64,000 bases of DNA, taken from IMG/VR virus record IMGVR_UViG_3300042731_004976, positions 32,001 to 96,000 of that record; one strand, given 5' to 3'. Position 1 is the first letter of the stretch; every line of letters starts with the position of its first letter. Positions 9,001-63,508 of this stretch are shown piece by piece. Position numbers and translations under genes: made by a program. This DNA comes from a virus. The notes beneath the pieces were generated by a model, which was not told where the DNA came from, made no database searches, and saw only the letters and a list, made by a program, of their open reading frames with translations.

Positions 9001-9151
9001 TACCGATGCGTACTTCGTCGTCGTGGACGAGACCAACAACGATGCGGCTTCCATCGAAGCAGGTCAGGTCATCATCGACATCGGAGTCGCCCCGAACCGC
9101 CCGGCGGAGTTCGTTCGCTTCCGCTTCCAGCAGAAGACGATCTCAGGCTAG
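6086..9151 (+). CDS. Contractile tail sheath protein with large internal insertions
   Basis: FLSPGVFIEE N-terminus; WGVRT, WRYIQARRL, FENN, GVAPNRPAEF C-terminal sheath motifs; AGGAGG RBS. Confidence 0.95.
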   Translation: MAEFLSPGVFIEEVPSTVQTIAAVSTSNLGIIGFTTKGPVDEATLVTSPDQFFRTFGELSPDTFTGLSVLAFFANGGRRAFVVRVVPSDAVTADADLQSKTYSQQIETGDGSTVNFTKTDLNTTLKVNGGLSPIIAYNGLANAGILLQWRSAGAAIAAERVKDITDGTTDLDLVDSQAEYGFTIDPTQLPALAEEDWEQLAVVPGTVTLSFDPDGGGARTLVLANPTSGSVSSTPGDGATTDSETVVVFDYATGRGSILFGASDINDVPDASVVAASLTLAYTPTTTSRQARDDGSGNIIQITTSTIDAGGTNTIDYNDGSYDFDTTVGATPHDGAPILATYFIEAFDLNPVSPGEWANNIKLQVQGNANYFDASTQTYTKFDVNVTELNSQSGLFEVVESYEALDFSDSSAVDYFVDVINELSDLIEVTSPAGDEAPGTLNGRSVTQEIGAGGANFTPATFGAVDLLGDDLRDQGFAIGPRSVVLTATDKGLAATGTITTVAEASLIDGETFTLDDGVNPAITFEFDVGGGGVVAGNVAVVIAAMDTADVVRDAIITAVNGEAAAGNILIRAADGGAATVDLTHARTGVVGNQAITDTVADAGFVVVGMAGGTADTTLTVNDDGTGALTGDIDPTYATTVTVSGTDIPPNEINYALGWANFQFNTTNGLKGGTLVEAAFYTDPEESVREDQFGDTDKQFTDTAAVPVDHYAAGSDGTFTSSTYSRTQFSDPTLQSGDRGLYALNKVDEIMQVIIPDFAGDVTVTGDLLDYAAARAALPSGGDRFIILAVPVGSDAQEAVDWFRFDLGRFSKFAALYWPWIRVADPLADGRPLLMPPLGHVAGVYARTDTTRNVGKAPGGTVDGALNFLIGLETEPTQGDRNFVYPNKINPLISSPQTGLAVWGVRTIAIESEWRYIQARRLFMFLEKSVFNATGWIVFENNGPGLWSRIKGQLDGFLSNLFNEGLFFGASPTDAYFVVVDETNNDAASIEAGQVIIDIGVAPNRPAEFVRFRFQQKTISG

Positions 9152-16028: not shown

Positions 16029-16559
16029 ATGAGCGAAGTGAAGACATGGCGGTACAGTCTCCCAGGTCAGAAGGAGCCGTACGATAGCTGGACGATCGCG
16101 TTAATCGATTCGACGGGTTGCGTGGCGATCCTCTCTGACTACGGAGACTGGTGCTACCGTTGGTCCACGCCAAACACAGGCCATGAGGACTTCCGCGAGT
16201 TCTTCATCGGCATCGATGCGAGCTACGCCGCGCGCAAGCTAGCCAACGAGAGTGATCGAAACCAGTTCGACGGAGAGGCCACGAGGAAGCGTATTCGTCA
16301 GGACATCCTGAGAGACCGTCGCGCGCGTGCCTGCTCTGCGGATTGGGCTCGCCAAGAGTGGGACCTCGTGGATGTGATCGAGGATGACCACGAGTGCTCT
16401 TTCAGTGCATTTCTGGCAGAGACCTCCATCGAAGATGCTTTCGAGTACGCGATCACCAGGATGGGGCGCGGCTTGACACACTGGGTTCACGTGTCACTAC
16501 CTCGGCTACAACAACTGATTCGAGAGGAGCTGGCGAGCGAAGCCGGCGAAACGTTATGA
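16029..16559 (+). CDS. Phage hypothetical protein
   Basis: ORF 15972..16559; I.SDYG.W.Y.W...F..F motif; ATGA-coupled to rtcB. Confidence 0.6.
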   Translation: MSEVKTWRYSLPGQKEPYDSWTIALIDSTGCVAILSDYGDWCYRWSTPNTGHEDFREFFIGIDASYAARKLANESDRNQFDGEATRKRIRQDILRDRRARACSADWARQEWDLVDVIEDDHECSFSAFLAETSIEDAFEYAITRMGRGLTHWVHVSLPRLQQLIREELASEAGETL

Positions 16560-17962
16560 GCTTCAAGTACCAAGCGATCAAGCACGGAGACAGCCACTAC
16601 GTATTGCCGAAGATCGGCGACATGCGAGTGGAGGCCCACGCCTTTCTTTCCGATGCTCTCTATGAGTCGTCAGATGAGGGCCTGTGGAACCAGCTTGCGA
16701 GCGGAGCTTCCTACGAGGGTGTCATCGGAGCCTACGTCATGCCCGACACGCACCTGGGCTTCGGAGTTCCGGTAGGTAGCGTCATCGTCACCGAGAACAC
16801 CATCATCCAGGCAGGCTCCGGCTACGACATCTCGTGCGGCGTCGTCTACATGAAGGTTCCGGGGCTCAAAGCCCGAGGCGTGCGTGGCTGGTACGATCGC
16901 GAGCGCTGGATTCGAGAAGTCGAGAAGCGGGTAGCTACGGGTGTGGGTTCCAACCGCCCCAAGCTGATGCCCAAGTTCTCGGTGAAGAAGAGCGACGAGA
17001 TCTTCCACCAGGGGGCCAAGGCTCTCGGAGTCTCGGCTGATGTGTGTGAACGCCAGTTCATCGAGGTCCCCAGCGATACAGATCCTTCGAGGATCGAGAA
17101 GGCCTACGCAAAGTCCCTCGATCAGCTCGGAAGCGTGGGAGGGGGAAATCACTTCGTCGAGATGCAAGTCGATCGCGACACGGGCGAGGTCTTCGTCATG
17201 GTTCACTGCGGCTCCCGCGGCTATGGCTGGCAGGTCGCCAACCACTTCTTCTACGAGGGTGCGCTTGCTCGCGGTCTTCCCACGAATCGCCGAGAGGACT
17301 CGTGGCTCTACGCAGACGAGCCCCTCGGGAAGGACTACTGGGCCCTTCACAACACGGCTGCCAACTACGCCGTGGCCAACCGACACATCATCGTTCGTGG
17401 CGTCCAGGAGGCCCTCCAGGAGGTTTTCGGGGTTGAGGGTGAGGTCTACTACGAGATCAGCCACAACCTCGTGCAGGAGGAGACTCTGGTCCTCCCCGAC
17501 GGGACTCAGAAGAAAGGCTTCGTGCACAGGAAGGGCGCGACACGTGCGTTCCCGGCCGGACACCCGGACTTGAAGGGTACGAAGTGGGAGTCCACGGGGC
17601 ACCCCTGTCTGATTCCCGGCTCGATGTACGAGGGGGCAGCGATCCTCTTTCCGAAGCAAGGCGCCTACAAGTCTGGGTGCTCCGTCAACCACGGTTCTGG
17701 TCGTCTCATGGCTCGGGGAAAAGCACGGAAGACCCTCGGGCACAAGCAGGCACGCATCGACGAGGAGATGCGTACGGTCAAGCGTACATTCAACGGTGTT
17801 CAGATCGAAGGGATTGTCGGAAACACCAAGAAGACCCCCATCGACGAGTGTGGGCACGTCTACAAGGATCTGGACGAGGTGCTTGCTGTCCTGGAGGACA
17901 ACGGCATCGCAGAGGTGCGCCACCGGCTCTATCCGGTGGCCAACATCAAGGGAACGGACTGA
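16556..17962 (+). CDS. rtcB: RtcB RNA ligase
   Basis: MPDTH.G.G.P, DISCG, GGGNHF.E, HCGSRG, HRKGAT, PGSM, HGSGR, YKD motifs. Confidence 0.95.
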   Translation: MSFKYQAIKHGDSHYVLPKIGDMRVEAHAFLSDALYESSDEGLWNQLASGASYEGVIGAYVMPDTHLGFGVPVGSVIVTENTIIQAGSGYDISCGVVYMKVPGLKARGVRGWYDRERWIREVEKRVATGVGSNRPKLMPKFSVKKSDEIFHQGAKALGVSADVCERQFIEVPSDTDPSRIEKAYAKSLDQLGSVGGGNHFVEMQVDRDTGEVFVMVHCGSRGYGWQVANHFFYEGALARGLPTNRREDSWLYADEPLGKDYWALHNTAANYAVANRHIIVRGVQEALQEVFGVEGEVYYEISHNLVQEETLVLPDGTQKKGFVHRKGATRAFPAGHPDLKGTKWESTGHPCLIPGSMYEGAAILFPKQGAYKSGCSVNHGSGRLMARGKARKTLGHKQARIDEEMRTVKRTFNGVQIEGIVGNTKKTPIDECGHVYKDLDEVLAVLEDNGIAEVRHRLYPVANIKGTD

Positions 17963-25055: not shown

Positions 25056-25456
25056 TCGTCTACATTCGGCAATTTCGAATGGAGCAGTCAGCGATGTCTG
25101 CTTACAGTAGCTACATGGGTCCGGGCCCGGTCACGATAGAGATAGAGCTGGTGGCAGAGGGTTCGGAGGGCTACGAAGACCTGAAACACCACGGTCCCTT
25201 CATCTTGGAGCCCTTGAACAAGCATACCCAGAGACGCGAGGCGCCTCGTCCCGAGACACTCGCTCCGTCGAACGCTACGATGGCGAATCCGGAGATGCTC
25301 GCTGTCGATACTCCCTCGCCTACCGAGGCGCAGGCCGAAGCCGATCAAGAAAGGATGCATCGTATGACGACGCCATACGAAGAAGACTATCAATGGTCAG
25401 GATGTCCTGACTGCAACACCAAACCCTGCTGCTGTGCACTGCCGGATCTATTCTGA
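25052..25456 (+). CDS. Hypothetical protein with C-terminal Cys cluster
   Basis: GTGA overlap with the upstream gene. Confidence 0.55.
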   Translation: MIVYIRQFRMEQSAMSAYSSYMGPGPVTIEIELVAEGSEGYEDLKHHGPFILEPLNKHTQRREAPRPETLAPSNATMANPEMLAVDTPSPTEAQAEADQERMHRMTTPYEEDYQWSGCPDCNTKPCCCALPDLF

Positions 25457-25755
25457 TGGGCCTATTCGACTACATCGACATGTTGATGACTGAGGAACAG
25501 GCGCAGGAGTGCGCCAAGTCGGGTGTGATCTACACGCCGTACGTCCCTCTCCAGGTCTCCAAGGTCATGATCAAAACCACCGTCACCCTCCACCTCGAAG
25601 AGTGTGACTGTCCTGCGTGTTGTCCCTATCACGTAGCAGCACGCCGGCATCCGTACGGACCCGGGCAGGTACTCTCAGTCTCCCTAGCCGATGGCGAATC
25701 TCCTCCAAAGGGCTGGAAACGGGTACCAAAAGATCCGAACAGTTCTCTTCCTTGA
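25456..25755 (+). CDS. Small protein carrying a gp23 major-capsid C-terminal motif
   Basis: GVIYTPYVPLQVS resembles gp23-family G(I/Y)xYAPY(V/I)(P/A)L. Confidence 0.55.
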   Translation: MGLFDYIDMLMTEEQAQECAKSGVIYTPYVPLQVSKVMIKTTVTLHLEECDCPACCPYHVAARRHPYGPGQVLSVSLADGESPPKGWKRVPKDPNSSLP

Positions 25756-25789: not shown

Positions 25790-26731
25790 ATGAATGAAGA
25801 GACCCTCCGCGACCGTCGACTTGGGACCATTCTCGCCGGAGCTATCGGCGATGCCCTCGGACACCCGACCGAGTTCATGTCCCTGTCCTCGATCTACGAG
25901 AAGTACGGGGTGGATGGCGTTCAGGGCTTCTCTCTCTGGCGGAAGGACCCCGAGACGGGCAAGGAGTACTCCCCCTACACCGACGACACCCAGATGGCGG
26001 AGGTGGTCCTCCGAACCATCCTGAGTGCCCAGTTGGCCGACTTGGACGAGGAGCACATGTTCGAGAAGATGGCTGAGGGCTTCGTGGAGTGGGCCAGAAA
26101 CCCCCAGGGAGGCCACAGAGCGCCCGGAGGAGCCTGTATGAGCGGTTGCCGGGCCCTGGGCAGCGGAGTGCCCTGGAGAGAGGCTGGAGGCCCCTCTGCG
26201 GGCGGCTGTGGGTCGGTCATGCGCTGCTACCCCTTTGGGCTCTTCTTCGAGCCGGACGAGGCGGAGAGGCTGGCCGTGGCGCACTCGGCCATGACCCATC
26301 GGGACCCCATCGCGCTGGCTGCCTGTGCCGCCATGGCGAGGGGGGTGGCCCTCAACCTGAGGGACGTCCCCGTGGACGAGGTCATCCAGGAGATGATCGC
26401 TGCTGCGGCGCGTTATAGCGAGCAGACGGCTGAGATGATGACGGATGCTTGGGAGCAGGCCAAGGCCGGGACTCACGCGGACGTGGTGCTCTCTCGGTAC
26501 GAGGGCTGGGCAGCCCATGATGCCATCGCTGCGACGGTCTACCTGTTCGCCTGCTTCCCCGAGGATCCCAAGGGAGCCATGCTCCGCGGCGTGACCAGCA
26601 AGGGGGACTCCGACTCCCTGGGAACGCTTGCTGGGGCCATCGTGGCCTCGCGTACGGGGCTCAAGTCCCTTCCCGAGGACTTGGTCCGAGACGTCGAGCG
26701 CTCGGAGGTCTTCCTGAGCATTCTCGACTGA
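25790..26731 (+). CDS. ADP-ribosylglycohydrolase (DraG/ARH family)
   Basis: GAIGDALG..EF, YTDDTQM, GCGSVMR, GDSDS. Confidence 0.95.
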   Translation: MNEETLRDRRLGTILAGAIGDALGHPTEFMSLSSIYEKYGVDGVQGFSLWRKDPETGKEYSPYTDDTQMAEVVLRTILSAQLADLDEEHMFEKMAEGFVEWARNPQGGHRAPGGACMSGCRALGSGVPWREAGGPSAGGCGSVMRCYPFGLFFEPDEAERLAVAHSAMTHRDPIALAACAAMARGVALNLRDVPVDEVIQEMIAAAARYSEQTAEMMTDAWEQAKAGTHADVVLSRYEGWAAHDAIAATVYLFACFPEDPKGAMLRGVTSKGDSDSLGTLAGAIVASRTGLKSLPEDLVRDVERSEVFLSILD

Positions 26732-29442: not shown

Positions 29443-30218
29443 TGAGCCAGGAAGTCGTGATCTGGTCGGGAGGTGCGGACTCTACGTATCTCCTCCACAA
29501 GCTGCTGACGAATTCGACGCAGCACTGGCCTGTGATCGCCTTGAGCATCGACAAGCACACCCAGCTGCATCAGGGACTTCTTGAAAAGCAGCGCGAAGCT
29601 CGCGAGAACTACAAGGCTTTCGTCAAGAAGAAGCACGTCGGATTCTTGAAACACCGCGTCGTGCGAGTTGAGACAGACGCGGCTCTCGACATAGGCAGTC
29701 AAGTAGCTCTCTGGATCTCCTCGCTGGTTCCGTACGTAGGCAAGGGACAGGAGCTGAACTTCGGCTACATTCGGGGAGACACCTTCTGGCACGAACGTAG
29801 GCACGCCGTAGCCATGATCGAAGCGATCCACTCTATCCACTACTACCCCAATGACGAAAAGATCACAGTCAAGTACCCCATCGAGTGGATGCAGAAACAC
29901 GAAGTTCTGGAGGGGTTGAAGAAGTTCGGTGTCCCGAACAAGTGTTGGTGGTCATGCGAGAAGCCCGAGAACGGAAAGGCGTGCGGTAGATGCGACAAGT
30001 GCTTGGAGCTGGAAGTCGGTCGCTTCGTGCTCAACGGGTCGAGAACCTATCGTCGGATAAACAAGCCAGGGAAGCTGTTGACGAAAGCCGTAGATGCCGA
30101 CGTGAAGCAAGCGCCTCAGCTAGACAAGGACTTCCAAAAGAAAAACGAGCCTGCGGTTCTAGGCGTCGGTCGCTCCATAGCCAAGAAGCGCAGCGCCAAG
30201 AGGAAGCGCAAGTCCTAG
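29442..30218 (+). CDS. queC: QueC-like PP-loop ATPase (7-cyano-7-deazaguanine synthase family)
   Basis: WSGGADST PP-loop; WSC.......CG.C.KC Zn site. Confidence 0.8.
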   Translation: MSQEVVIWSGGADSTYLLHKLLTNSTQHWPVIALSIDKHTQLHQGLLEKQREARENYKAFVKKKHVGFLKHRVVRVETDAALDIGSQVALWISSLVPYVGKGQELNFGYIRGDTFWHERRHAVAMIEAIHSIHYYPNDEKITVKYPIEWMQKHEVLEGLKKFGVPNKCWWSCEKPENGKACGRCDKCLELEVGRFVLNGSRTYRRINKPGKLLTKAVDADVKQAPQLDKDFQKKNEPAVLGVGRSIAKKRSAKRKRKS

Positions 30219-30298
30219 TACGGAAGTGCTACGTTCTCCTTGTCCATGCTCACCGAGATCTAGTCGATGCTGCTCGCTCTTGCCATCTACAGGTTGCC

Positions 30299-30535
30299 TT
30301 GAGCCCTCCGCCCGTCGAATGGCTGCCCGACGATCAGAGATGGCGGGCGCGTCTCGGACACGTGCACGCCGTGATCTACCGGATGGGTACTCGCTACACG
30401 TGGGAGGTCTGGAGGGACGACGATTCCGAGGAGCCCTGCGCTACGTGGGCTCCAGAGATTCCTGTGGACCTTGGAGGAGCAAAGAAAGGCGCGGAGATAG
30501 CTCTACGTCGCGCCTTCATGATCCCCAAACGCTAG
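30299..30535 (+). CDS. Hypothetical protein (start uncertain)
   Basis: 3' part of ORF 29990..30535. Confidence 0.35.
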   Translation: MSPPPVEWLPDDQRWRARLGHVHAVIYRMGTRYTWEVWRDDDSEEPCATWAPEIPVDLGGAKKGAEIALRRAFMIPKR

Positions 30536-30852
30536 CGGCAGCGTACGTGCTCGGTTGTCGAGAACAGCATGCCGAACTCGCCGCTTCCCAACTCGCAGTC
30601 CTGGTTGAGGGGCTCGCACTCGACCCAAGCAGAGAACGAGCTACACGGCGGTTGAGGGCACCGATTCCCGTGGGACTCGCTGAGGAGTTTCGAGAGCGTC
30701 TTCTCGCAATCCGCCTTGTCGACGGAACAGTGATCCTCCGCAGCATGATCCTCGGTGATGCTCTTGCAAAGAAGCTCTGGCTTCTCGGCCTCCTTGCAGG
30801 AAGAGAACAGAATCCCAACCAAGAACAGTACGGCGAGGGCTCGGAGCTTCAT
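30532..30852 (-). CDS. Cys-rich lipoprotein
   Basis: MKLRALAVLFLVGILFSS-C signal with lipobox. Confidence 0.65.
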   Translation of the reverse strand: MKLRALAVLFLVGILFSSCKEAEKPELLCKSITEDHAAEDHCSVDKADCEKTLSKLLSESHGNRCPQPPCSSFSAWVECEPLNQDCELGSGEFGMLFSTTEHVRCR

Positions 30853-30898
30853 GCGGTGCATGGTACCGTACTCACTACAGCAGGGCAAAGGACTAGGG

Positions 30899-31153
30899 AT
30901 GCTTCCTAGAACCGCGTTCGTTTTCACCTGCCGGGGCTGCGGCGAAGACGTGCTTCCCGCAGACGTTTGGGAACTTCAAGCGCTCAACGCGCAGTACCGA
31001 CCTACTGCTCTCAGGCTGCTCTCTTCTCTGCTGGACACCAACGCTAAGCGTGGGGTGCACCTGAAGCTCGTTAAGAAACCCGTAGGAAAGAGGATCAAGA
31101 TTGTTCGGGAGTGTTGCGGTCCTGTTGTGGAATCCCGCAAGGTAGTGTCTTGA
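30899..31153 (+). CDS. Hypothetical Zn-binding protein
   Basis: CRGC...CC. Confidence 0.45.
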   Translation: MLPRTAFVFTCRGCGEDVLPADVWELQALNAQYRPTALRLLSSLLDTNAKRGVHLKLVKKPVGKRIKIVRECCGPVVESRKVVS

Positions 31154-31154
31154 T

Positions 31155-31430
31155 CTACGTGCGATTTCTTCTGGGCACGTCTGCAATCACGTCGAGGTCC
31201 TCTGGCACGCCCTTGGTTCGGACTTCGCCCCCTTGAGGCCCCTGCCAGATGTACGTCATCGGTTCCCCGGGGCCGTTCCACTCGGTCTTCTTGAGCTTCC
31301 CCCTGAACTTACGCCCGCCGTGCGTGAAGCTGACTTCGGCATCTACGCTGATCCGAGGCTTCCGTTTCTCCAAGAGAGTTTTCGCAGACTCGACCATTTG
31401 CATGCCCTCGCGTACAGCGGCTCTATCCAT
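31155..31430 (-). CDS. Hypothetical protein with N-terminal LLE motif
   Basis: MDRAAVREGMQMVESAKTLLE start. Confidence 0.55.
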   Translation of the reverse strand: MDRAAVREGMQMVESAKTLLEKRKPRISVDAEVSFTHGGRKFRGKLKKTEWNGPGEPMTYIWQGPQGGEVRTKGVPEDLDVIADVPRRNRT

Positions 31431-31444
31431 GATCCTGGATACTA

Positions 31445-32167
31445 TCACGGTTCCTCCGAATAGACCTGACGAAGTATTCGTAGGTGCTCCGCATCTATCT
31501 GCCTCTCGGGGTGAGGCGTGAGAGCTACCTGCCGATCGATCATTTCTCCCCACGATCCCCAGATGCTCGGATCTGACGCACCTGCGTAAAGTGCCACGTC
31601 TGCTGCATAGAAAGCAGCGGGCTTGGTTTTTCCTCGGGCGGCAGCAGCGGCGCTCCTGTAGGCAGCATCACATGCTCGTACGGCGTTAGCGATCACTCGT
31701 CGATCGTCGTCTGTGAATCCTGAGCGTAACCGTTGGGCCAGCGCACGTGCCGTCTTCGAAGTCTGGGAAGCGCTCTCGCGGTCCTCCGTGATCGGCAATT
31801 CTTCTAGCTTCGGTACCTCGTCGTACAACCCCGCAGAGCGTAGTGCTCGGGGAGCCCCGACACGGCATGCCCAGTCCACAGCCAGAAAACTCCTGAGCTG
31901 CTCGTTATGTTTTGTGGATCTCGTGCCCAAGAAGGAACCGAGCCTGGGTAGGAAGATCTCGTGTCGGATGCGGTCTGGGATGATCCGTCCAGCGTTCGCT
32001 ACGCCTTCGGCGATGACCGGACAGACTGACGGAGGGTTTCCGAAAACTTCCCCTTCGAGGTAGGCGAGGATGCCGAGGACAGAGAATTCTCCGGTGTCCC
32101 TGTTGGTCCGTGCGCCGAGTGGAGGAATCGGTACCGAGCCTACCCCAGGTATCTCGATAGAGATCAC
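31445..32167 (-). CDS. Phage hypothetical protein
   Basis: P..VCPVI...D..R...L.P....GT...DW motif; Ala-rich. Confidence 0.6.
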   Translation of the reverse strand: MISIEIPGVGSVPIPPLGARTNRDTGEFSVLGILAYLEGEVFGNPPSVCPVIAEGVANAGRIIPDRIRHEIFLPRLGSFLGTRSTKHNEQLRSFLAVDWACRVGAPRALRSAGLYDEVPKLEELPITEDRESASQTSKTARALAQRLRSGFTDDDRRVIANAVRACDAAYRSAAAAARGKTKPAAFYAADVALYAGASDPSIWGSWGEMIDRQVALTPHPERQIDAEHLRILRQVYSEEP

Positions 32168-34690: not shown

Positions 34691-35119
34691 CTAGGGCGTT
34701 GCGGACTTTTCTTTGACGTCGTCGAGCCAGTCGTCCGGAAGGAAGTTCTCGATGAAGAAGGTGTGGAGGGTCTGCTCATCGGAGATCTTTTGTCGTAGCT
34801 CCTTGTAGCCACTTATCCCCGGACCCATATCATCAAAGGCCGCCATAGTCAAGGGAGTGAACTCCCAGACCACAGGCTGCCCGTCGTCTCCGATGTTGTT
34901 CTTGTCGACGATTTGAACGCCATCCTCTGTGTCTTTGGGATCTCCGAGGATGTAGTGAGGACGTTCGGTATTCGTGACGAACTGGACACCCTTCGTCATC
35001 TCACCCGTCTCTTCGAGAGGGTACTCGACGGGTTTCACCCCCATCGCTACTGCGCTCCCATAGACGAAGTTGTGGGACTTGTCCCGGTATCGGTAGACGG
35101 CGTACGGATCCAAAGGCAT
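34691..35119 (-). CDS. Hypothetical acidic protein coupled to the large kinase/ART gene
   Basis: TGATG overlap at 35119. Confidence 0.65.
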   Translation of the reverse strand: MPLDPYAVYRYRDKSHNFVYGSAVAMGVKPVEYPLEETGEMTKGVQFVTNTERPHYILGDPKDTEDGVQIVDKNNIGDDGQPVVWEFTPLTMAAFDDMGPGISGYKELRQKISDEQTLHTFFIENFLPDDWLDDVKEKSATP

Positions 35120-38100
35120 CAGTCAGTCTCCACTACGGGCTTGATGTACTTCTCGTAGATCTTTCCGGCGTTCTTCTCGATGATGAAGAAGTCCTCGACG
35201 GGGACCCCGTTGACTTCTTGAATACCCGAAGCTCTTGCATTCTTGATCATGGCCTTTCGCGCAGACTCTGAGGGGGCAACGATGCGCATCATTCGCTCTG
35301 GGCGAACCCCCTTGCGGAAAGACAGCTCAGTCGTTGTGGCCGCGTTCTTCTGTTGAGCGTCCAAGCGAGCTTCGAGGCTCTTGCGTCCAGTCCAATCAGG
35401 AGAGTCCTCGCGGCACCTACCGTACGTGTCCTTCATGAACATGTACGTATCCATCCGGTCCAGCTCCTCCGGGTGGATCACCACCTGCCACGACTTGGCG
35501 AAGGAGTAACCGTTGATCGAGGTGTTGTCGCCGCTAGCACACACCGTGTGGCATAAAACACCGTCTCCGGAGCCGCTGTTCACGTCCTGCTCGTAGCTCA
35601 CTCCCGTCTTGGCGATGCCATGCTGGTTGCGCTCGTGGATTCCCATCGGGCCTGTCCTCAGGATCGATAGAATGGCGCCTTCGTCAGCACCGTGGAAGGC
35701 GAACCGGAAGTTTCCTCCCGCGAGCTTCTTGTGACGTCCCTTCTGAACGTGAGCCGAGTATCCAGGATAGACCTCTTCGTGAACCGTGGCTTTCATAGCA
35801 TCCTTCCCACCCTTGATCTTCTTGATCATACTGGTGAGGTTCTCCACGGTTCGATCTTCTTCCTTGAGAGCATCGGCTTTTTGAGGGCTCAGTGCCCACA
35901 AGATGCGGCTGAGTCGATGCGTCTCCTTCTCTTCCGGAGTGGGATCCCTGAGCACGTCCTTGGCTAGCCCAGGCTTCATGGTGTCTAGACTCTGCTTCAC
36001 GACGTCCTCGACAGTTTCTCCTTTCTTGGGACGCGCCTTCACGTAGACGCTACCCATATAGGCGTACTTGTGGGCGCCCGTAGCCAAGTGCACCTCGGAG
36101 TCGCCAATCTTCCACGTTCTAGTCGAGACGCTGTCGGAGTAACCGCCCACCTCAACGAACACATCGTTCTCCGAATCGTAGGAAGCGTGCGGGAATTTCC
36201 ACTGACCCTCGTTGCCAGAGTCTTTGAGACTCTCCCATTGGGGCTTTCTGAGCTTGAAGTGAACGTAGTGGTAGTCCTGACCGCTGGCGGTGCGGTATCG
36301 CTTAGCGCGCATGACAGAACCTTCCACCGAGGGACCGTCGGAGCTGAATCCTTTGCCCCACTTGCCCAAGGTCGTACTAGCGACTTGCTTGAACTCCTTC
36401 GCGTTGTCCGTTGCCTTGGGGTTTTCGTGATCGTCCGTGAAGTACCGAGGAGTAGAGGGGGCGTCAGCTATACCTTTGGGCTCTACGATTTCTTCGATCT
36501 CCGTAGAGGCGCTTTCCAAAGCCTTCTTGTCTACGAACATCATCATGTACTGACTACCCTCTATGTGATCCGCTTTACCTGTGAGTGGATTCACCAAGGG
36601 CTTCAGGTTGAGTTCGTCGAATAGCTTCTTCAGCTTGTCTAGACCGTTGAGATCGTCATTCGGGATCTTGATGGTCAGCTTCGAGTCGTCCTTCTCGGTC
36701 GGAGTTTTTGGGTTGTGGTAAGGGCGGATCTTCAACCCTTCGAAGCCTGTAGCCGAAATGTACCAACCCGACGGCTCCTTTTTCAGAGCGGAGTTAGGAG
36801 AATCAGCTTCGGATAGCTTGAACGAGATCTTCTTCTTGACCTTCTTGGGTCCGGATCCTTCGGGGACCCATCCCTTGTCGAAAGTGAAGACGCCCTTATC
36901 TGTATTCTCCTTCGACTGGTAGACGGTCGTAATGAGCTTCTCGAAGTCTTTGCGAAGATCGAGCTTACGCTTACGCATCTTCTTCAGGAGATCGTTCTGC
37001 GCTTGGATCTTTTTTGGGAAGATCGTCTCTGCGTAGGGACGAGTGGCCTTCATGTACGCGGCCGTGCTCATCTTCTCCAGCTTTTCGATAGTCTTCTTGG
37101 TGCCCTCCACCAAGGGCTCGATGGGGTAGTCCCCCTTCGCCGCTCCCTTCCACAAGGCGTTGTAGTACGGGGGCTTCTCTCCGTAGAGCTTTGAGTTGGG
37201 CGCGTACTCCGTACTCAACTCGTCTTCGCCAAAGAAACGGAAGCCCTGTTCCTTATCGACGCTAAGGATCTTACCGTCCTTGCGACGAACGAAGTTGGCT
37301 CCGTGGCTGTCGTGCTGGCTCATGAGCCAGTCGAGCACGTGCTCCTGTGTGATGGATGCGCGGTCCTCGTTAGAAAGCGTCTTGGGGTTGACGTTCGCTA
37401 GGTTGGGTTGATCTGGATCTAGATCGATAAGGGGCTGAAGCGTTCCGAACTTCTTGTTGACCTCGGTTACGCCTACCACCAGGTGCTGGTCGTCCACGGT
37501 ACGAGCGACTTCAGACCACAACTGCTGCGCGGCAGCCGAGTAGGGCTTGGCTTTTCCGCCTCCTTTTTCGTAGGCCGCCTTGTGCATCCACTTCTGACCC
37601 TTGTCGTCTTCGTAGATGACCTTGTCCCCTGCGCCTCCCAGGAAGTTGCCAGATCCAACCATCTTCAAGGAGTCGATTTCTGGAAGACCCTCGGGGGTCT
37701 TCATTTCCAGAGCGGCCTTCTTCTGATCGGAGAGCTTTACAGGTTCCGGTATCGCAGGAGCGACCGGAGGAGGAAGATCCTTCTTCGTCACCTTGCTTGG
37801 GGTGACGAAGATCTCAGGCTCGGGATGTTGGACTTGATCTTCGGGGGGCGCTTTCTTTGCCGCAGGAGTCGTCTTCACCTTACCGAACATCGTTTTTTCG
37901 ACCGTGTTCCCGGTAGGAGTGACCTGCTTGTTCTTTGCCTGCTTCCCTGTACTCGCTACGATGACGAATCCGCCCTTTGGATCCACGTACTCGGTGGGCT
38001 TGAGGTCGAGAACCTTGTAGACTTCATCGTTGGGAAGCACGAACTCGTCTTTGGCTAGCCCCAAAGATTTCTGGAACTCGAAAGCCTCGTCCGGCGATGG

Positions 38101-39099
38101 CGGTTCGTATCCAGCCGGAGCTTTGCCCTTCCAATCGAAAACGAAATCGGGATCGGGTTCGTTGACCTCGGGCGGCGGTGGTACCGGAACGTCAGGTTCC
38201 TTGGGGGCTTCGCCGATCATGGCAAGCGTGTAGCCCTCCAGAGCCTTCTGCCACTTCTGAATGTGTGCGGCGTACGCCGACTTCCCCGCGGGCAGCGTGG
38301 CCCCTTCTGCCTTCTTCTTGTAGTGATCGACTGCAACACTCGCGAGCCCTGCTGCTGTCTTGAAGTCGCCCTCGTCTCCCGCAGTCTCCGCGTAGTAGCC
38401 AAGAGAATCCACCTGCATCGACGTAAGCTTGTTCGCGTTCTTCTTGAAGTAGTCGACGTCCTTCTTGAGGACTGCGTTTGAGAATTCGACAGCAGGCAGA
38501 GCAGGTTGGTCCCCTGCCTTTGGCGAAGGTTCCGGTTCCGGAGTTTTCGTCACGTTCGGTTCTGGCTCTGCCGCAGGTTCTGGCTTTTCCGGTTCCTTGG
38601 GCTTGGGCATCCCGAGGAGATCGAGAAGGCCGTCTACGCCTCCTGCGGACGGCGGTACTTCCTTGGGCAAAGGTTCGCCAGCAGCCAACGCTTTCGAGAA
38701 AGTGTTCTGCGGCTTCACGCCTTGCGCCTTCAGCTTCTTCGCGAGGTTCTTGAGCTTGACACTGGGAATCCATCCGGACAGCTCGGGCACCTGGTTCTGC
38801 CCAGGGAGAGGCTCCAGCTCCCCGCCGCTACCGATGTCTCCTACTGGTGGATACTCATCCGTCGTACCTTCTGGGGGATCGATGAGGTCCGGAAGGTGCT
38901 TCTCCAGATTCTTCTGCTGGATCCACACAGGCTTGGCTCCGGAAGCGTAGTTCTTCCAGACGAGGATCTTTTCGCCTTTCTTGCCGATGATCTTGACCTC
39001 GTCTAGAGTTTCCCCGACGAAGGTTCGCGAATCGAGCAAGCGTCCCTGGGATTGCCAGATACGGAAGCCTGCGGGACGTTCCTTGAGTACGGCTCCCAT
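35119..39099 (-). CDS. Large polyvalent protein: Pro-rich N-terminus, HipA/PI3K-like kinase domain and C-terminal ART-like domain
   Basis: LGGAGDK..., W.HK, DWLMSQHDSHGAN, SVDKEQ (kinase); FHG...ILSIL..G...S...D...G...E..FR.G (ART-like). Confidence 0.65.
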   Translation of the reverse strand: MGAVLKERPAGFRIWQSQGRLLDSRTFVGETLDEVKIIGKKGEKILVWKNYASGAKPVWIQQKNLEKHLPDLIDPPEGTTDEYPPVGDIGSGGELEPLPGQNQVPELSGWIPSVKLKNLAKKLKAQGVKPQNTFSKALAAGEPLPKEVPPSAGGVDGLLDLLGMPKPKEPEKPEPAAEPEPNVTKTPEPEPSPKAGDQPALPAVEFSNAVLKKDVDYFKKNANKLTSMQVDSLGYYAETAGDEGDFKTAAGLASVAVDHYKKKAEGATLPAGKSAYAAHIQKWQKALEGYTLAMIGEAPKEPDVPVPPPPEVNEPDPDFVFDWKGKAPAGYEPPSPDEAFEFQKSLGLAKDEFVLPNDEVYKVLDLKPTEYVDPKGGFVIVASTGKQAKNKQVTPTGNTVEKTMFGKVKTTPAAKKAPPEDQVQHPEPEIFVTPSKVTKKDLPPPVAPAIPEPVKLSDQKKAALEMKTPEGLPEIDSLKMVGSGNFLGGAGDKVIYEDDKGQKWMHKAAYEKGGGKAKPYSAAAQQLWSEVARTVDDQHLVVGVTEVNKKFGTLQPLIDLDPDQPNLANVNPKTLSNEDRASITQEHVLDWLMSQHDSHGANFVRRKDGKILSVDKEQGFRFFGEDELSTEYAPNSKLYGEKPPYYNALWKGAAKGDYPIEPLVEGTKKTIEKLEKMSTAAYMKATRPYAETIFPKKIQAQNDLLKKMRKRKLDLRKDFEKLITTVYQSKENTDKGVFTFDKGWVPEGSGPKKVKKKISFKLSEADSPNSALKKEPSGWYISATGFEGLKIRPYHNPKTPTEKDDSKLTIKIPNDDLNGLDKLKKLFDELNLKPLVNPLTGKADHIEGSQYMMMFVDKKALESASTEIEEIVEPKGIADAPSTPRYFTDDHENPKATDNAKEFKQVASTTLGKWGKGFSSDGPSVEGSVMRAKRYRTASGQDYHYVHFKLRKPQWESLKDSGNEGQWKFPHASYDSENDVFVEVGGYSDSVSTRTWKIGDSEVHLATGAHKYAYMGSVYVKARPKKGETVEDVVKQSLDTMKPGLAKDVLRDPTPEEKETHRLSRILWALSPQKADALKEEDRTVENLTSMIKKIKGGKDAMKATVHEEVYPGYSAHVQKGRHKKLAGGNFRFAFHGADEGAILSILRTGPMGIHERNQHGIAKTGVSYEQDVNSGSGDGVLCHTVCASGDNTSINGYSFAKSWQVVIHPEELDRMDTYMFMKDTYGRCREDSPDWTGRKSLEARLDAQQKNAATTTELSFRKGVRPERMMRIVAPSESARKAMIKNARASGIQEVNGVPVEDFFIIEKNAGKIYEKYIKPVVETD

Positions 39100-55955: not shown

Positions 55956-57929
55956 TCATCGGTGTCGTAGGAAGTTGACGAAGCTTGAAGCCACCAGGTG
56001 CACCAGATCTCGGTCGAAGTGCTCAGGGTCGACGAACCTCCAGTTCTTTGAGGATCCAAACATGAACTGCATCTGTTTGGGAGTGACGTCGAATCTGAGC
56101 TGCGCCTTTCCTGCCCTGCGAGGATCTCTGAAGCGCTCACCCAGCATCACGCAGGTAACGTTGGTTCCGTTCTTTCGCATGGATCGTGATTCGTCCCGAA
56201 CGAATCCCATGAGCTGGTTCGAGTTGAACCACTTGCCGTCGCGGCGGCGGTGAGAAGGAAAACCGTCCGTGAGCAGGAAGCATTGCGTGCTTTCGGTGCC
56301 TTCCGAAAGCCGCCGTCCGGCGACACGTAGAGCGATGTGGATTGGCGTGAGACCTCCGACACCGAGACCCTTTGTGCGCATGATGATATCCTGATGAGGA
56401 TCGAAGCGTGTCAGGACTACTTCTCCTGCTTCCTGCGACGTGAAACCCCAGACCTCTACCGATACGTAGGGGAAGCGCAGCGCACGCTGGATGATGCGTG
56501 CTGCTCTCTCACATTGCACAGTCTTCTGTCCTTCCATCGAGCCTGACCTGTCGATGAGCAAGATTGCTCTAAAGCCTTTGCCAGACCCTTCCGCTTTGAA
56601 GACTGGTACCGGTATTCCGGTGAGCCGTCTCTCGATGAGAGCCCCTACGTCCACTTCTACGCCCGCGTCTTCGAGCGTCGCTTTGCGACGTCCTTCTACC
56701 CGGTGAAAAATGGAACGGAGCCGCATGACCGTGCGTTCGTCCTCCGCGGGGAAGGGCTTGTACTGTCCCGAGGTGTCCTCGTCCAGGAAACGAATTTTTG
56801 CCATGGCGTCCTTTTGGAGCCAGTCGTCTTCCTGGAGTTCTTGGCGCATGTTCTTCCGCGCCTTCTGGACGATCTCGTCCATCTCGTCTTCGGTCGATTC
56901 GAGCAGTTCTTCCATGCTCTGCTCGTCGTTGACGTTGGCCTTGATGGCTTGGTTCGCTTGCGCTTGCGCCTTGGGAGAGGGTCGACCCTTTTGGAACTTG
57001 GAATCTTCGACCGAGTCCTTCACTTGATCGGGAGCGTTGCCGAACTTCTTCAGCAGGTCTTGCAGTGCCTTTGTTCGATCCTGTCCTGACGGCTCTTGCT
57101 TTCCTTCCGGCTTCGGCTTGTTGTCCTTGTTCTTGCCTTGCTGCGGCTGTTTCTTCTCTTGCGGAGGAGCCGCTGCGTTCGGTTGCGGTGGTAGGAGCGG
57201 CGGCAGCTTCTCCTGATCCCGTAGGATCTGGTTCACCATCTGCATGACGAGCCACTTCGATACGACGAGGGTAGAAGCGAAGCCTCGTTGGTTCACTTTG
57301 CGGAACGCTTCCTCGACGAACGGTCGGAACTTGTCCATGTCTCCCGGAGGAATGTTCTCCGGATCGACTTCCAGACACGTGATGAATCCGAGGAGGGTCT
57401 TGTGTGCGTCGGGAAGGAGTTCCTGCACCTTGGTTTTGGCGATCTCCCTCATGTCCTCATAGCTGCCCTGATAGAGTCGACCCCACAGGGATCCGATGCG
57501 GCGCCGTTCGAGGAGCGTGATGATGTGCGTGAGGGCTGTGTGGAGGTAATGGGGTGAGATCTCTTGCCCCATCTTCTTGGAGATTTGCTCGATGCGCCCT
57601 ACATACTCCGAGACGAAGAGCTTCTTCGCTTTGGGATCGGTGCGGAAGAGAATGTGCGCGAGCTGTTCTTCGACCAACCGATAGAAGTTGGGGTCAGAGA
57701 AAGGTACACGGATCTCGTGTCCGTTCGTTGCGGGCTCCGGGCCGTTCTTCAACCACAAGCGCTTGCGTGTGATGCCCGCGAAGGTGTCGACCGTCTTGTA
57801 GGCAACGGTCTTCTTTTGTTGGAAGCGTATGAGGCGGTCGAGGGACTCCAGATCGATCTTCTCGTCCTTCGGTCCTTCGTGCTCCTCTAGAAGCTCCAGG
57901 GGGTCCTGTCCTGGTTGCTGTTGGCTCAT
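55956..57929 (-). CDS. vWA-domain protein (CobT/NorD-like partner of the AAA+ ATPase)
   Basis: MIDAS IDRSGSM, G.TP, LLTDG; ATGA-coupled to the AAA gene. Confidence 0.85.
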   Translation of the reverse strand: MSQQQPGQDPLELLEEHEGPKDEKIDLESLDRLIRFQQKKTVAYKTVDTFAGITRKRLWLKNGPEPATNGHEIRVPFSDPNFYRLVEEQLAHILFRTDPKAKKLFVSEYVGRIEQISKKMGQEISPHYLHTALTHIITLLERRRIGSLWGRLYQGSYEDMREIAKTKVQELLPDAHKTLLGFITCLEVDPENIPPGDMDKFRPFVEEAFRKVNQRGFASTLVVSKWLVMQMVNQILRDQEKLPPLLPPQPNAAAPPQEKKQPQQGKNKDNKPKPEGKQEPSGQDRTKALQDLLKKFGNAPDQVKDSVEDSKFQKGRPSPKAQAQANQAIKANVNDEQSMEELLESTEDEMDEIVQKARKNMRQELQEDDWLQKDAMAKIRFLDEDTSGQYKPFPAEDERTVMRLRSIFHRVEGRRKATLEDAGVEVDVGALIERRLTGIPVPVFKAEGSGKGFRAILLIDRSGSMEGQKTVQCERAARIIQRALRFPYVSVEVWGFTSQEAGEVVLTRFDPHQDIIMRTKGLGVGGLTPIHIALRVAGRRLSEGTESTQCFLLTDGFPSHRRRDGKWFNSNQLMGFVRDESRSMRKNGTNVTCVMLGERFRDPRRAGKAQLRFDVTPKQMQFMFGSSKNWRFVDPEHFDRDLVHLVASSFVNFLRHR

Positions 57930-58780
57930 GCACTCTTCTTCTTGGCTGCGGTGCCGAAGAGAGATCCCAGACGTTCCTCTACGGTATCTCGGTCTGCGCC
58001 CTCGAACTTGCCGAGAACGATCCGACAAGCGTTGGGGATGCCCAAGATTGCCATGTCGTCGAGGATCTGTACCACGTCTCTGGTCGATAGCGCGTACTCC
58101 AGTGCCTTCTGTCTGGTCTCATGCGCTAGAAGAAGTACGCGCTCGACCGTCTTCGGCGGTAGCTTCTTGCTGATCCCCTTTAGAGTCGCTTCGATGATCG
58201 CTTCCTCGTCCTTCGTCTTGGGGTAGTTGAGAGCAATCAGACGAAGACGGGACTTGAGGTCTTCGTTGAGCTGGTGGACTCCTCCGTAGACCGCAGAGTT
58301 CATCGTACCAACGATCCACACCTTGGCACCCTTCTCCAAGGTGAAGACCTTCTGTAGTTCGGGAACCTCGATGCGTGCTCTCCAGTCTGTTGCGGCGTTC
58401 AGCACCTTCTGCATTTGAGGCGTGAGCGCATTGATCTCTTCCATGCAGAGGATGCACTTTCCTACCTCGTTGGCAACCTCGAAAACCGTGGTGAGCGGAC
58501 CGAGAATGAAGGGGGTTTGATCTCCACGGAGTACCTGCATGCCGATGAGATGGGAGCGTCTCACGTCCTCAGAGCAGTCGTAGGTGATGATCGGGCAGTT
58601 GTTGGCATAGGCGAACGATTGGAAGCTCAAGGTCTTCCCGATACCTTTGGGACCCACGGCGACAGTGGGCGCTCGAAAGGACAAGCCCTCGTACAGCGGC
58701 ATCAGCTCGAAAACGTCCACGTACTGGACATCCTTCGGAGCGAAGAGCGATGAGGGCATGCGTTCCGTTGTTTGCTTCAT
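57926..58780 (-). CDS. MoxR/CbbQ/NirQ-type AAA+ ATPase
   Basis: GPKGIGKT, GPL, EEIN, GTMN..YGG...LNEDLKSR, STR. Confidence 0.9.
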   Translation of the reverse strand: MKQTTERMPSSLFAPKDVQYVDVFELMPLYEGLSFRAPTVAVGPKGIGKTLSFQSFAYANNCPIITYDCSEDVRRSHLIGMQVLRGDQTPFILGPLTTVFEVANEVGKCILCMEEINALTPQMQKVLNAATDWRARIEVPELQKVFTLEKGAKVWIVGTMNSAVYGGVHQLNEDLKSRLRLIALNYPKTKDEEAIIEATLKGISKKLPPKTVERVLLLAHETRQKALEYALSTRDVVQILDDMAILGIPNACRIVLGKFEGADRDTVEERLGSLFGTAAKKKSA

Positions 58781-60595: not shown

Positions 60596-60643
60596 GCACA
60601 GCTAGGACAGGAAACGTCCTTGCTCTATACTTGACCCGGCCTC

Positions 60644-60889
60644 ATGGAGAAGCTCGTTCTCGAAGACCTCAGCGACCTGGAAGAAGAACGCTGTCCCCAC
60701 TCGAAGATCGTTCCCTACGGGGATGGCAAGTGGGGACGCTGTGTTCGTTGCGGGGATGCCTCGTTCCCGCTGGTGGCCGAAGACGATCCCGAAGTACCGT
60801 CCGAAGGTCTCGTGATGGTGCTGTACCCAGAGGACCGGGACGCCCTGCTAGACCGCTTGCGGGCTCGCTTGAAGAAACCTTCCCTTTGA
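60644..60889 (+). CDS. Small Zn-ribbon protein
   Basis: CPH...CVRC. Confidence 0.55.
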   Translation: MEKLVLEDLSDLEEERCPHSKIVPYGDGKWGRCVRCGDASFPLVAEDDPEVPSEGLVMVLYPEDRDALLDRLRARLKKPSL

Positions 60890-60914
60890 CAATCGTTCCC
60901 CTGCCTATTACCAT
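60886..60914 (+). promoter_or_regulatory. Sigma70-type promoter
   Basis: TTGACA-N17-TACCAT. Confidence 0.7.
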
Positions 60915-62191: not shown

Positions 62192-62360
62192 GCTGGAAGC
62201 GCTGTTCGCTTCGCTCGACACCGAGACCCTGTTGAAAGAGGTTCTTTTGGACGGCTACGAGACGCAGCAGGACTACGAGAAGTACGGAGATGCCTTCGTT
62301 CCCTTGAAGCCTTTGGCACCTACGTGTACTGCCCTCGTGAAGGTGTCAAACGATGAGTGA
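62181..62360 (+). CDS. Small hypothetical protein (59 aa)
   Basis: GAGGAGG RBS; fills the gap. Confidence 0.45.
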   Translation: MKTELEALFASLDTETLLKEVLLDGYETQQDYEKYGDAFVPLKPLAPTCTALVKVSNDE

Positions 62361-62667
62361 TCTGACCTCGTTGGCTCCGTGCCCCTTTCCCCAATGCGGT
62401 TCCTCCCGTGTCGTGATGAAGGGGTCATTCGGTCTGCCGTCTTCCTACTGGGTCCACTGCAAGGACTGCGAAGCGACTGGTCCGAAAACTCCCACAATCG
62501 AGGAGGCGGCGGCTCGTTGGAACGGTGTCTTGGTTCGAGGGCGTGCCGACGGATTAGAGTTAGCTGCGGATTCCGTTAGTGTGGTGAGCATGAACGGCGA
62601 CCAGCGAGCCGTCATTCGAGCACGGAACGCCATCTATGAAACCCGAGATCGATTGGAGTCCGCATGA
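62353..62667 (+). CDS. Lar-family restriction-alleviation-like Zn-finger protein
   Basis: L.PCPF..CG...V.C..C.A.GP.....EA...WN. Confidence 0.75.
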   Translation: MSDLTSLAPCPFPQCGSSRVVMKGSFGLPSSYWVHCKDCEATGPKTPTIEEAAARWNGVLVRGRADGLELAADSVSVVSMNGDQRAVIRARNAIYETRDRLESA

Positions 62668-63239
62668 AACGCCGTACGTTCCTCCAAGGCTTGAGTGTTC
62701 TTCCTGCTGTGGGGAGTGTTGCAGAAGCTCCCCGGGCGGCGGAAGTTCCTTTCAATCACGCGCTGACGGACGACGAGGCCAAGATCGTCTCCATGAGCCA
62801 GTTGCTCGTTCAGAACTTTCGCGACTACGTGAAGCAAAAGGGTTGGGATCTCCCTGTAGCCGAGCACTTGTTCATAGAGCAAAACGCGAGGCTCTTCTGC
62901 CAGTACCTCGCTGATTGGACGCTTAGCGACCCTCTATTCGAGGAGCACGACCGTTCCCTGTTCGTTCCCTCGGTGCTATGGGTCACGACTGTTCCCGGAG
63001 TCTCCCGCAAGCTGCGCGTCCCTTGGATTGGAGACGAGGAGGCGGATCCTGAGGAGGTGTGGGCGAAAGAAGCAGCCCTCGATGTTCAGCACGAGATCAG
63101 GAAGGAGGCCGAGGAGGTTGGTCGTCTTCAGGGGTACCTGATTTATCTCCCTCCGTTCTTGCCTCCGTCCTACTTGGATCCCAGGGACTTCTCTGTCCAT
63201 CGGCGGTTCTTGCTCAACTACACGAAGGTGCGTGCGTGA
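62664..63239 (+). CDS. Tat-signal protein with collapsed gp23 major-capsid motifs
   Basis: MKRRTFLQG...AEA signal; SRKLRVPW and DPRDF-x9-YTK motifs. Confidence 0.6.
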   Translation: MKRRTFLQGLSVLPAVGSVAEAPRAAEVPFNHALTDDEAKIVSMSQLLVQNFRDYVKQKGWDLPVAEHLFIEQNARLFCQYLADWTLSDPLFEEHDRSLFVPSVLWVTTVPGVSRKLRVPWIGDEEADPEEVWAKEAALDVQHEIRKEAEEVGRLQGYLIYLPPFLPPSYLDPRDFSVHRRFLLNYTKVRA

Positions 63240-63508
63240 TGCCGATCTGGGGAGCGTCGTTCCACGAACCTGACGAGACTCCTGAGGAGCGCGAAGCGCG
63301 CTTTGCGGAGATACAGAAGCAGATCGAGAAGGTTGTTGCGAAGGTCATCAAAGAGAACGCAGAGCTGTCCGCTTTGTGGGCGCACGCAACGGGCCGTATC
63401 GTCGGAGAGGTCATGGTGCAGGAGCACTTCCCTCCGGAATGGATCGAGCAGGTGCAGCGGGCTGTGTTGTCCTGCCTTGCGAGGGAGTCGGGTATCAATG
63501 AAACGTGA
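63239..63508 (+). CDS. Hypothetical protein
   Basis: TGATG coupling. Confidence 0.55.
   Translation: MPIWGASFHEPDETPEEREARFAEIQKQIEKVVAKVIKENAELSALWAHATGRIVGEVMVQEHFPPEWIEQVQRAVLSCLARESGINET

Follow-up and report, generated by a model that had tools for sequence, protein, structure and literature searches.

Why would a phage place an export-type leader in front of a piece of its own major capsid protein (MCP)? The question is raised by P0001, an open reading frame (ORF) of 191 residues at positions 62664 to 63239 of the window, by which we mean the whole 64,000-nucleotide stretch analysed here (bases 32001 to 96000 of the 167,992-bp virus record IMGVR_UViG_3300042731_004976, from an uncultured phage). 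Coordinates below refer to the window unless marked as those of the record. An earlier reading of the letters, hereafter the original prediction, had described a 191-residue ORF with a twin-arginine start at this place, and we confirmed both the intact frame and the opening residues, MKRRTFLQG. P0001 is an undescribed form of the gp23 capsid-protein family that bears an export-type leader; its descent from gp23 is close to certain, and we are highly confident that the gene is real and under selection. Its start codon overlaps the stop codon of the upstream gene, which encodes a protein resembling the restriction alleviation protein Lar (ATGA), implying translational coupling. The parts of the gene are as follows, with helices and strands taken from an AlphaFold2 (AF2) model and its per-residue confidence score (predicted local distance difference test [pLDDT]).

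62655..62666, plus strand: GGAG ribosome-binding site, 5-nt spacer and ATG, by inspection of the sequence
62664..63239, plus strand: whole P0001 gene, stop included; open frame for the leader-bearing, 191-residue mini paralogue of the capsid protein
62664..62729, plus strand: twin-arginine translocation (Tat)-type leader, residues 1 to 22; MKRR, 16 uncharged residues including the invariant Pro14, then SVA and AEA small-x-small sites
62730..62771, plus strand: linker rich in Pro, Ala and Glu, residues 23 to 36; low model confidence, length highly variable in the family
62772..62936, plus strand: N-terminal helical domain, residues 37 to 91; AF2 helices 37 to 59, 65 to 83 and 85 to 91, pLDDT >90
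62982..63116, plus strand: gp23-derived strand (SRKLRVPW) and spine helix, residues 107 to 151; from hhalign and hmmsearch against the phage's own MCP and the match to T4 gp23
63126..63233, plus strand: gp23-derived C-terminal P-domain strands, residues 155 to 190 (YLIYLPPFLPPSYLDPRDFSVHRRFLLNYTK); from BLASTP and hmmsearch against the phage's own MCP, with AF2 strands at 155 to 165 and 183 to 190

Searched alone, P0001 matched no Pfam or PHROG family (including no match to PF07068 at E ≤ 1 in the Pfam scan), the NCBIfam scan returned no family, and the sole trace was a TAT_signal match below threshold. A word-indexed homologue search gave just the query and a few known members. Exhaustive phmmer searching of 1.84 billion representative proteins yielded 18 further relatives of 86 to 279 residues, all of them metagenomic, and the comparisons below use a family profile of 20 sequences (A1). 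Against the PDB, this profile matched the chains of T4 gp23 at an E value of 5e-7 over KSRQLKAAYS...DADAELSGILATEIMLEINRE, a segment that includes EIMLEINRE, and 6 of the 20 members matched PF07068 individually (best E value, 1.5e-12).

The phage's own MCP belongs to the gp23 family and is encoded just upstream of the window (record 30181 to 31689; PF07068, E = 7e-73). With hhalign, A1 aligned to this protein at 98.1% (E = 9e-14) and to an alignment of 12 MCPs of the phage's clade at 98.7% (E = 3e-16). When all six-frame ORFs of the genome were searched with A1 by hmmsearch, the MCP was found at E = 1.4e-20 through two collinear domains, one covering the strand and spine helix (PRRLKALWSAEAAEDL...EIALEIDREI; i-E, 6e-14) and the other lying at the C terminus (PYIPLQVTPTFLDPNDFSFRKGLRTRYAK; i-E, 8e-5). 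The C-terminal relationship can be read even from pairwise comparison: P0001 aligns to MCP residues 459 to 486 without gaps (11 of 28 residues identical; BLASTP E = 1e-4), and other family members match the same MCP by plain BLASTP at E values of 1e-9 to 6e-12.

The original prediction had named three motif blocks shared with gp23, and these are genuine rather than random, being what the profile match to T4 gp23 and the alignment with the own MCP recover; the T4 motif that it gave as GIYYAPYV..DPKNFQPVMGFKTRYG was verified, and the other T4 motifs it quoted are also correct. It had further claimed a common DP-x-(D/N)F-x9-Y spacing. The DP-x-DF-x9-Y spacing is indeed identical in P0001 and the MCP C terminus, and the homologues keep both this motif and R-K-x-R, with R180 invariant and P173 and Y186 present in at least 90% of them. 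Judged from these alignments, the spine-helix and C-terminal P-domain segments share ancestry with the gp23 family.

Equally telling is what the family has lost. In the profile alignment, some 139 MCP residues (319 to 457), equivalent to the A-domain, are replaced by about 10, and the counterpart of MCP residues ~112 to 262 is missing; the E-loop/insertion region has been lost. Within the strand and spine-helix segment, P0001, the shortest full-length member, also lacks about 12 residues that are present in its relatives and in the MCP. The N-terminal domain (residues 37 to 91) has no significant sequence match to gp23. The proposal of a collapsed gp23 that retains the spine helix and P-domain and has no A-domain thus holds at the profile level, with consistent structural matches. 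As the deleted E-loop/insertion and A-domain regions include parts that a capsomer subunit needs, P0001 cannot serve as a shell subunit. The bit scores of A1 were 49.6 for the clade MCP versus about 31 for T4 gp23 and about 12 for gp24, an order which suggests that the family arose by duplication within this kind of phage.

The AF2 model of P0001, built with the family alignment, is compact (pLDDT, 79; predicted template modeling score [pTM], 0.75). It comprises a short leader helix (residues 3 to 12), a disordered linker, three helices between residues 37 and 91, a strand at 113 to 116, a long helix at 129 to 151 and two long strands at 155 to 165 and 183 to 190, so that beyond the N-terminal bundle there are only three or four strands and one long helix. 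pLDDT falls below 50 for residues 13 to 28, and the linker columns of A1 are variable. In the N-terminal domain the family shares the motif N-L-x-x-Y ... C-x-x-F-C-x-x-L-x-D-W-S-L-S. A similar picture was obtained for the paralogue at record 143142 (pLDDT, 76.7; pTM, 0.69).

We compared both models exhaustively with 48,161 chains by structural alignment. The best match was T4 gp24 in each case, with a Z-score of 5.7 for P0001 (root mean square deviation [rmsd], 4.3; 116 residues) and 6.4 for the paralogue (rmsd, 3.9; 124 residues). For P0001, gp24 was followed by encapsulins and by the capsid proteins of lambda, 80alpha and HK97, and about 40 of the top 50 matches of the paralogue were HK97-fold shells. 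Most of the top 50 matches of both models were capsid or encapsulin chains, although all Z-scores were modest (<8). Residues 52 to 191 of P0001 aligned to residues 11 to 384 of gp24 (1yue_A), with residues 52 to 91 falling on the N-terminal part of gp24. The structural check proposed in the original prediction was therefore answered in part: gp24 topped the exhaustive alignment, but Foldseek returned no PDB match to the P0001 model at E ≤ 0.001. Taken together with the sequence evidence, the modest Z-scores support a predicted HK97-fold fragment in the mature part, made of N-terminal helices and P-domain and devoid of the E-loop/insertion and A-domain.

The other half of the question concerns the leader. 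P0001 opens with M-K-R-R-T-F-L-Q, which satisfies the twin-arginine consensus (S/T)-R-R-x-F-L-K, and a leader of the form M-x-R-R-x-phi-L-[QK]-x-L-A-x-L-P-phi-phi-G starts 12 of the 20 family members. Of the 8 remaining rows, four look like truncated gene calls and the others are genuinely leaderless. Across 14 leaders that we compared, the arginine pair and Pro14 are invariant, while the Leu at position +3 and the L-x-x-L-P motif are nearly so. The M-x-RR start is followed by 13 to 18 uncharged residues with a mean Kyte-Doolittle hydropathy of 1.4 to 2.2, a basic c-region residue occurs in about half of the leaders, and a small-x-small site (AKA, ANA, AEA or SDA) lies near residue 26 in most relatives. 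In P0001 the candidate cleavage sites are SVA|E and an AEA that is followed by Pro. The leader is the most conserved segment of the protein, with a mean pairwise identity of 47% versus 27% for the N-terminal domain, 33% for the spine region and 43% for the C terminus.

These features make P0001 a probable Tat substrate. The claim of a Tat signal in the original prediction stands as far as all sequence hallmarks go and falls short at the curated threshold of PF10518; with this model, 2 of the 20 family members score E < 0.1. Translocation would depend on the host, as the phage record contains no TatA or TatC gene. Among the language-model look-alikes of P0001 are a Tat-signal cluster and the small subunit of a periplasmic hydrogenase, which we treat as a lead only. 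The same leader also heads two ORFs of this genome that are not capsid-like, of 56 and 238 residues.

The genomic setting resembles that of an accessory rather than a structural gene. The phage is of the myovirus type (~58% G+C) and has genes for a tail sheath, RtcB, a DnaB-like helicase and a methyltransferase. P0001 lies 63 kb from the MCP gene and beside the Lar-like gene, as had been noted, within a co-directional array of small ORFs that runs from about 60644 to the window end. The relevant neighbours and signals are:

60604..60914, plus strand: two sigma-70-like promoter matches at the head of the array (AGGACA-16-TATACT and TTGACA-17-TACCAT)
62353..62667, plus strand: Lar-like zinc-ribbon protein (restriction alleviation); PF14354, E = 7e-6, narrowly below the curated cut-off, and phrog_599, E = 1e-9
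63239..63508, plus strand: downstream neighbour of 89 residues, without a family; its start overlaps the P0001 stop by 1 nt

Three sigma-70-like sites were found versus 0.8 expected in shuffled sequence, although these are matches to a consensus only, and the T4 late-promoter consensus (TATAAATA) is absent across the whole record. The placement in an early region that the original prediction assumed is secure as to the accessory array beside the Lar-like gene, and early timing itself is probable. Comparison with related records defines the region further. A vWA/AAA block that ends at about 60640 directly adjoins the genes of record 144.4 to 148.4 kb in two of them (G001 and G005), whereas here the two blocks are separated by ~52 kb (record 92.6 to 144.4 kb) that holds all three paralogues, P0001 among them, and both additional leader ORFs. 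Since the flanking blocks abut in those relatives, the ~52 kb constitutes a variable accessory region. The same ~52 kb also contains thyX, RNase II and HAD/kinase-like (possibly RNA-repair) genes, as well as NAD-salvage genes, which we take to belong to it.

The family is sporadic. Searching the genome with P0001 revealed paralogues at record 143142 to 143852 (E = 2e-10) and record 119516 to 120028 (E = 0.01), together with a weak match inside the C-terminal part of the MCP gene. The ~20 members are only 22 to 45% identical and share the motifs and the leader. No member was found in five related IMG/VR records, whose MCPs are 69 to 88% identical to that of this phage and which are 42 to 83% complete. 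The clade itself is large and uncultured, with more than 1,400 MCP clusters at E ≤ 1e-20 (the nearest being 74 to 94% identical), and the nearest cultured MCPs are only ~31 to 35% identical. A tblastn search with P0001 and with its better-conserved paralogue against 50,697 cultured-phage records gave no match, and no PHROG model matched P0001 or its paralogues. Wherever the contig of another member could be read, the gene sat in a dense array of small ORFs without known function; these contigs are phage-like and reach 101 kb, and one of them carries a second, leaderless copy.

What, then, might such a protein do? Delivery to the cell envelope by the host Tat system is suggested by four features together: the conservation of the Tat-type leader, the flexibility of the linker, an accessory context of early type and a sporadic distribution. 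Our leading, still tentative, reading is that P0001 is a Tat-exported accessory protein, a core-only MCP paralogue acting at the envelope; that its role there is competitive is a somewhat bolder supposition. The gene would be transcribed early from the sigma-70-like promoters, and the protein would fold in the cytoplasm into a compact domain. The TatBC receptor of the host would recognise the twin-arginine leader, and the protein would be moved across the inner membrane and then either released or left tethered. Its role at the envelope could lie in competition between phages or between phage and host, superinfection exclusion or another envelope-level block being the most plausible form, with the capsid fold serving as raw material and not as a virion part. 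Early phage envelope proteins that exclude superinfection are familiar from T4 (Sp and Imm) and T5 (Llp): they are small, early, non-essential and sporadic, travel by Sec or lipoprotein routes and have no capsid origin. P0001 differs from them in having no relation to them in sequence or fold.

Several observations weigh against export to the envelope. Several full-length members are leaderless (the paralogue at record 119516, P0003 and a second copy in L061), so the capsid-like module also works without export. The PF10518 match of P0001 reaches 13.2 bits versus a curated cut-off of 22.7 (E = 0.09), and no Tat model of NCBIfam matches P0001. A Pro directly after an AxA site blocks signal peptidase I; cleavage at the AEA site is therefore uncertain, with SVA|E as the alternative. 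Signal peptides normally change faster than the mature protein, and a leader that is the best-conserved segment and has an invariant Pro hints at a role more specific than generic export. The motifs kept best in the mature part are those of real MCPs, which mimicry fits at least as well as neutral exaptation.

The last-mentioned conservation leads to the alternative that we rank next, although we regard it as unlikely: P0001 could be a capsid mimic or decoy, the P-domain surface binding an immune sensor that recognises MCPs, with the Tat leader docking the complex at the membrane or exporting the sensor. What the mature part has retained are the segments that vary least among true MCPs, a Lar-like anti-restriction gene lies next door, and a sporadic, fast-evolving, multi-copy family is typical of counter-defence genes. 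According to published work, sensing of MCPs is also common and may be directed at the P-domain: CapRelSJ46 contacts strand beta5 of the P-domain of its trigger MCP (PMC9712102), and Avs7 and Dsr1 sense MCPs as well (bioRxiv 10.64898/2026.01.04.697583). Set against this, no sensor partner is known, a look-alike of the trigger might activate the sensor rather than block it, export would remove the protein from cytoplasmic sensors, and no such decoy was found described in the literature. Lit is an unlikely target, as P0001 lacks a segment equivalent to Gol (residues 81 to 119 of the own MCP): A1 has no profile match to this part of the MCP and P0001 has no VQPM-type motif, which leaves a Lit-type decoy role without a basis in sequence. 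A slightly broader version, in which Tat-tagged capsid mimics would use the leader to sequester a capsid-recognising factor of the host or of a rival phage at the translocase, or to export it, seems to us marginally less probable again; capsid-sensing immunity would then be disarmed before the real MCP is made.

The peculiar conservation of the leader also invites the idea that it is no export signal at all but a phage-specific targeting or tethering peptide, one that might for example keep the capsid-like module on the cytoplasmic side of the membrane, or at TatBC, with no translocation taking place. We consider this improbable. In its favour, the leader exceeds the mature domain in conservation and has an invariant Pro and a near-invariant L-x-x-L-P; it is reused on unrelated ORFs, scores below the curated threshold of the Tat model and, in P0001, is followed by a Pro after the AxA site. 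Yet every recognised Tat hallmark is present. About half of the leaders have the basic residues associated with Sec avoidance and most relatives a canonical AxA site, and the disordered linker behind the leader is as in exported proteins.

Poorer still is the case for a modulator or poison of capsid assembly, in which the P-domain fragment would co-assemble with the MCP of this phage or of a co-infecting relative and so regulate or block capsids. In HK97-fold shells, the elements retained in P0001 form inter-capsomer contacts; in addition, MCP-like proteins of satellites (SaPIbov5 Ccm) are among the structural matches. An export-type leader is, however, hard to square with a part in assembly in the cytoplasm. 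Close relatives with MCPs 69 to 88% identical do not have the gene, which is thus dispensable for this capsid, and its position, 63 kb away from the head genes, and probably also its expression group it with early accessory genes. A complex prediction of the own MCP (residues 60 to 502) with mature P0001 (residues 29 to 191) scored 0.00, which, in a run without controls, speaks neither for nor against binding. A decaying, functionless remnant of a duplicated capsid gene, or a spurious ORF, would suit the shortest full-length member with its extra 12-residue deletion at the strand-helix junction, but is very unlikely given the intact frame with a ribosome-binding site and coupling, the ~20 diverged members (22 to 45% identity) that keep the motifs and the leader, and the confident, compact predicted fold.

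Returning to the preferred reading of an exported, capsid-derived accessory protein, comparison with known systems shows how far P0001 departs from each. With T4 gp23 and gp24 (PF07068; PDB 5VF3, 7VS5 and 1YUE) it shares, at the profile level, both the strand and spine helix and the C-terminal P-domain strands; gp24 is its best structural match and, like P0001, an intragenomic paralogue of the MCP. It differs in its length (191 versus ~430 to 520 residues), in lacking the E-loop/insertion domain and the A-domain, in bearing a leader and in lying outside the head cluster without being conserved among close relatives. Bacterial Tat signals (PF10518/TIGR01409; TorA, SufI and AmiA) likewise place the arginine pair in a K-R-R-T-F-L-Q context, and the family shares with them a short, weakly hydrophobic h-region with Pro or Gly, a flexible linker behind it and, in about half of the leaders, basic residues before the small-x-small site. 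In contrast to these, the P0001 leader is phage encoded, fused to a capsid-derived domain and below the curated threshold, and in the family the leader is more conserved than its passenger, with an invariant Pro. SaPIbov5 Ccm and other capsid-redirecting proteins of satellites (PDB 7RWZ) are also extra HK97-fold-related proteins apart from the main capsid gene, but Ccm has the whole capsid-like fold and becomes part of shells, whereas P0001 is a fragment with an export-type leader. Recognition of short parts of capsid proteins by host factors is seen for Lit with the Gol peptide of gp23 and for CapRelSJ46 (PMC9712102); in these cases the host senses real capsid proteins, and no phage-encoded capsid mimic is described there.

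In the literature, we found no description of this arrangement, whether as a capsid protein linked to Tat, a capsid decoy, a gp23 paralogue bearing a signal peptide or an exapted P-domain. Capsid proteins are usually viewed as strictly structural and cytoplasmic, and here a conserved family places a T4-type capsid-fold core behind a bacterial export-type leader; its genes are dispersed through accessory DNA of large phages that are abundant and uncultured. Should export take place, these phages have put a virion fold to new use at the envelope; should the proteins function as mimics, they would be the first example of decoys encoded by phages against the growing list of capsid-sensing immune systems. 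Either outcome offers a cheap experimental way of learning what phage accessory "dark matter" does, and the leader, conserved to an unusual degree, could find use as a portable tag for targeting.

The two leader-bearing ORFs of the same genome that are not capsid-like are located as follows:

record 98431 to 98601 (L015:2431-2601), just past the window end: 56-residue ORF, with the twin-arginine leader MKRRAVLQFLSSLPLLGWLAPEKA and ~30 unmatched residues
record 141090 to 141806 (L014:2091-2807): 238-residue ORF, leader type MDRRSFLLGAVSIPVAGSAGAKA, with a Cys-rich passenger without known family

The former might be a remnant, or else a small peptide that is exported. The latter has an alternative GTG start (L014 2064) that overlaps the stop of a 600-residue protein with RNase II (RNB) and dsRNA-binding domains, and it is not recognisable as a copy of any other protein of the phage. 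A comparable case occurs in the related phage G001 (35812 onwards; L075:1501-1917), where a 138-residue ORF opening MNRRELIKLGALAPLMAWF matches the leader profile more weakly (E = 0.006) and has a passenger unrelated to capsid proteins.

Some candidates were not counted as family members. P0019 (1,452 residues), the weakest match of the relative search, is a DUF285 repeat protein, and we judged its match to be a chance one boosted by the repeats: its repeat F-x-Q-D-I-S-x-W-D-V-S resembles the N-domain motif at residues 60 to 90 of P0001. The likeness of F-C-x-x-L-x-D-W-S-L-S in that domain to the DUF285/BspA-type repeat F-N-Q-D-I-S-x-W-D-V-S is probably likewise a matter of chance. Three small ORFs with capsid-like motifs were left out as well (hhalign, 36 to 55% or less; phmmer E values, 0.09 to 0.4):

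25456..25752, plus strand (record 57456 to 57752): marginal capsid-motif ORF
record 105625 to 105903: marginal capsid-motif ORF
record 124083 to 124568: marginal capsid-motif ORF

An example of the likeness is SGVIYTPYVPLQVS versus SGFVWAPYIPLQVT in the MCP, and the MCP is the top non-self match of two of the three.

Elsewhere in the window, overlapping genes for a MoxR-like AAA ATPase (283 residues) and a 690-residue protein lie at 55956 to 58780 on the minus strand, a pair that is kept in G001, G002, G003 and G005. The larger protein, which we read from its sequence as vWA-like, matches PHROGs of unknown function, and does so at its C terminus only. A 1,326-residue ORF at 35119 to 39099 on the minus strand has no PHROG match at E ≤ 0.001. 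At 6086 to 9151 on the plus strand, the tail sheath protein is 1,021 residues long and matches sheath families over residues ~600 to 1015 only, its large N-terminal extension being unexplained. An RtcB-type RNA ligase (16394 to 17962) and an ADP-ribosylglycohydrolase (25790 to 26731) are found among the structural and accessory genes.

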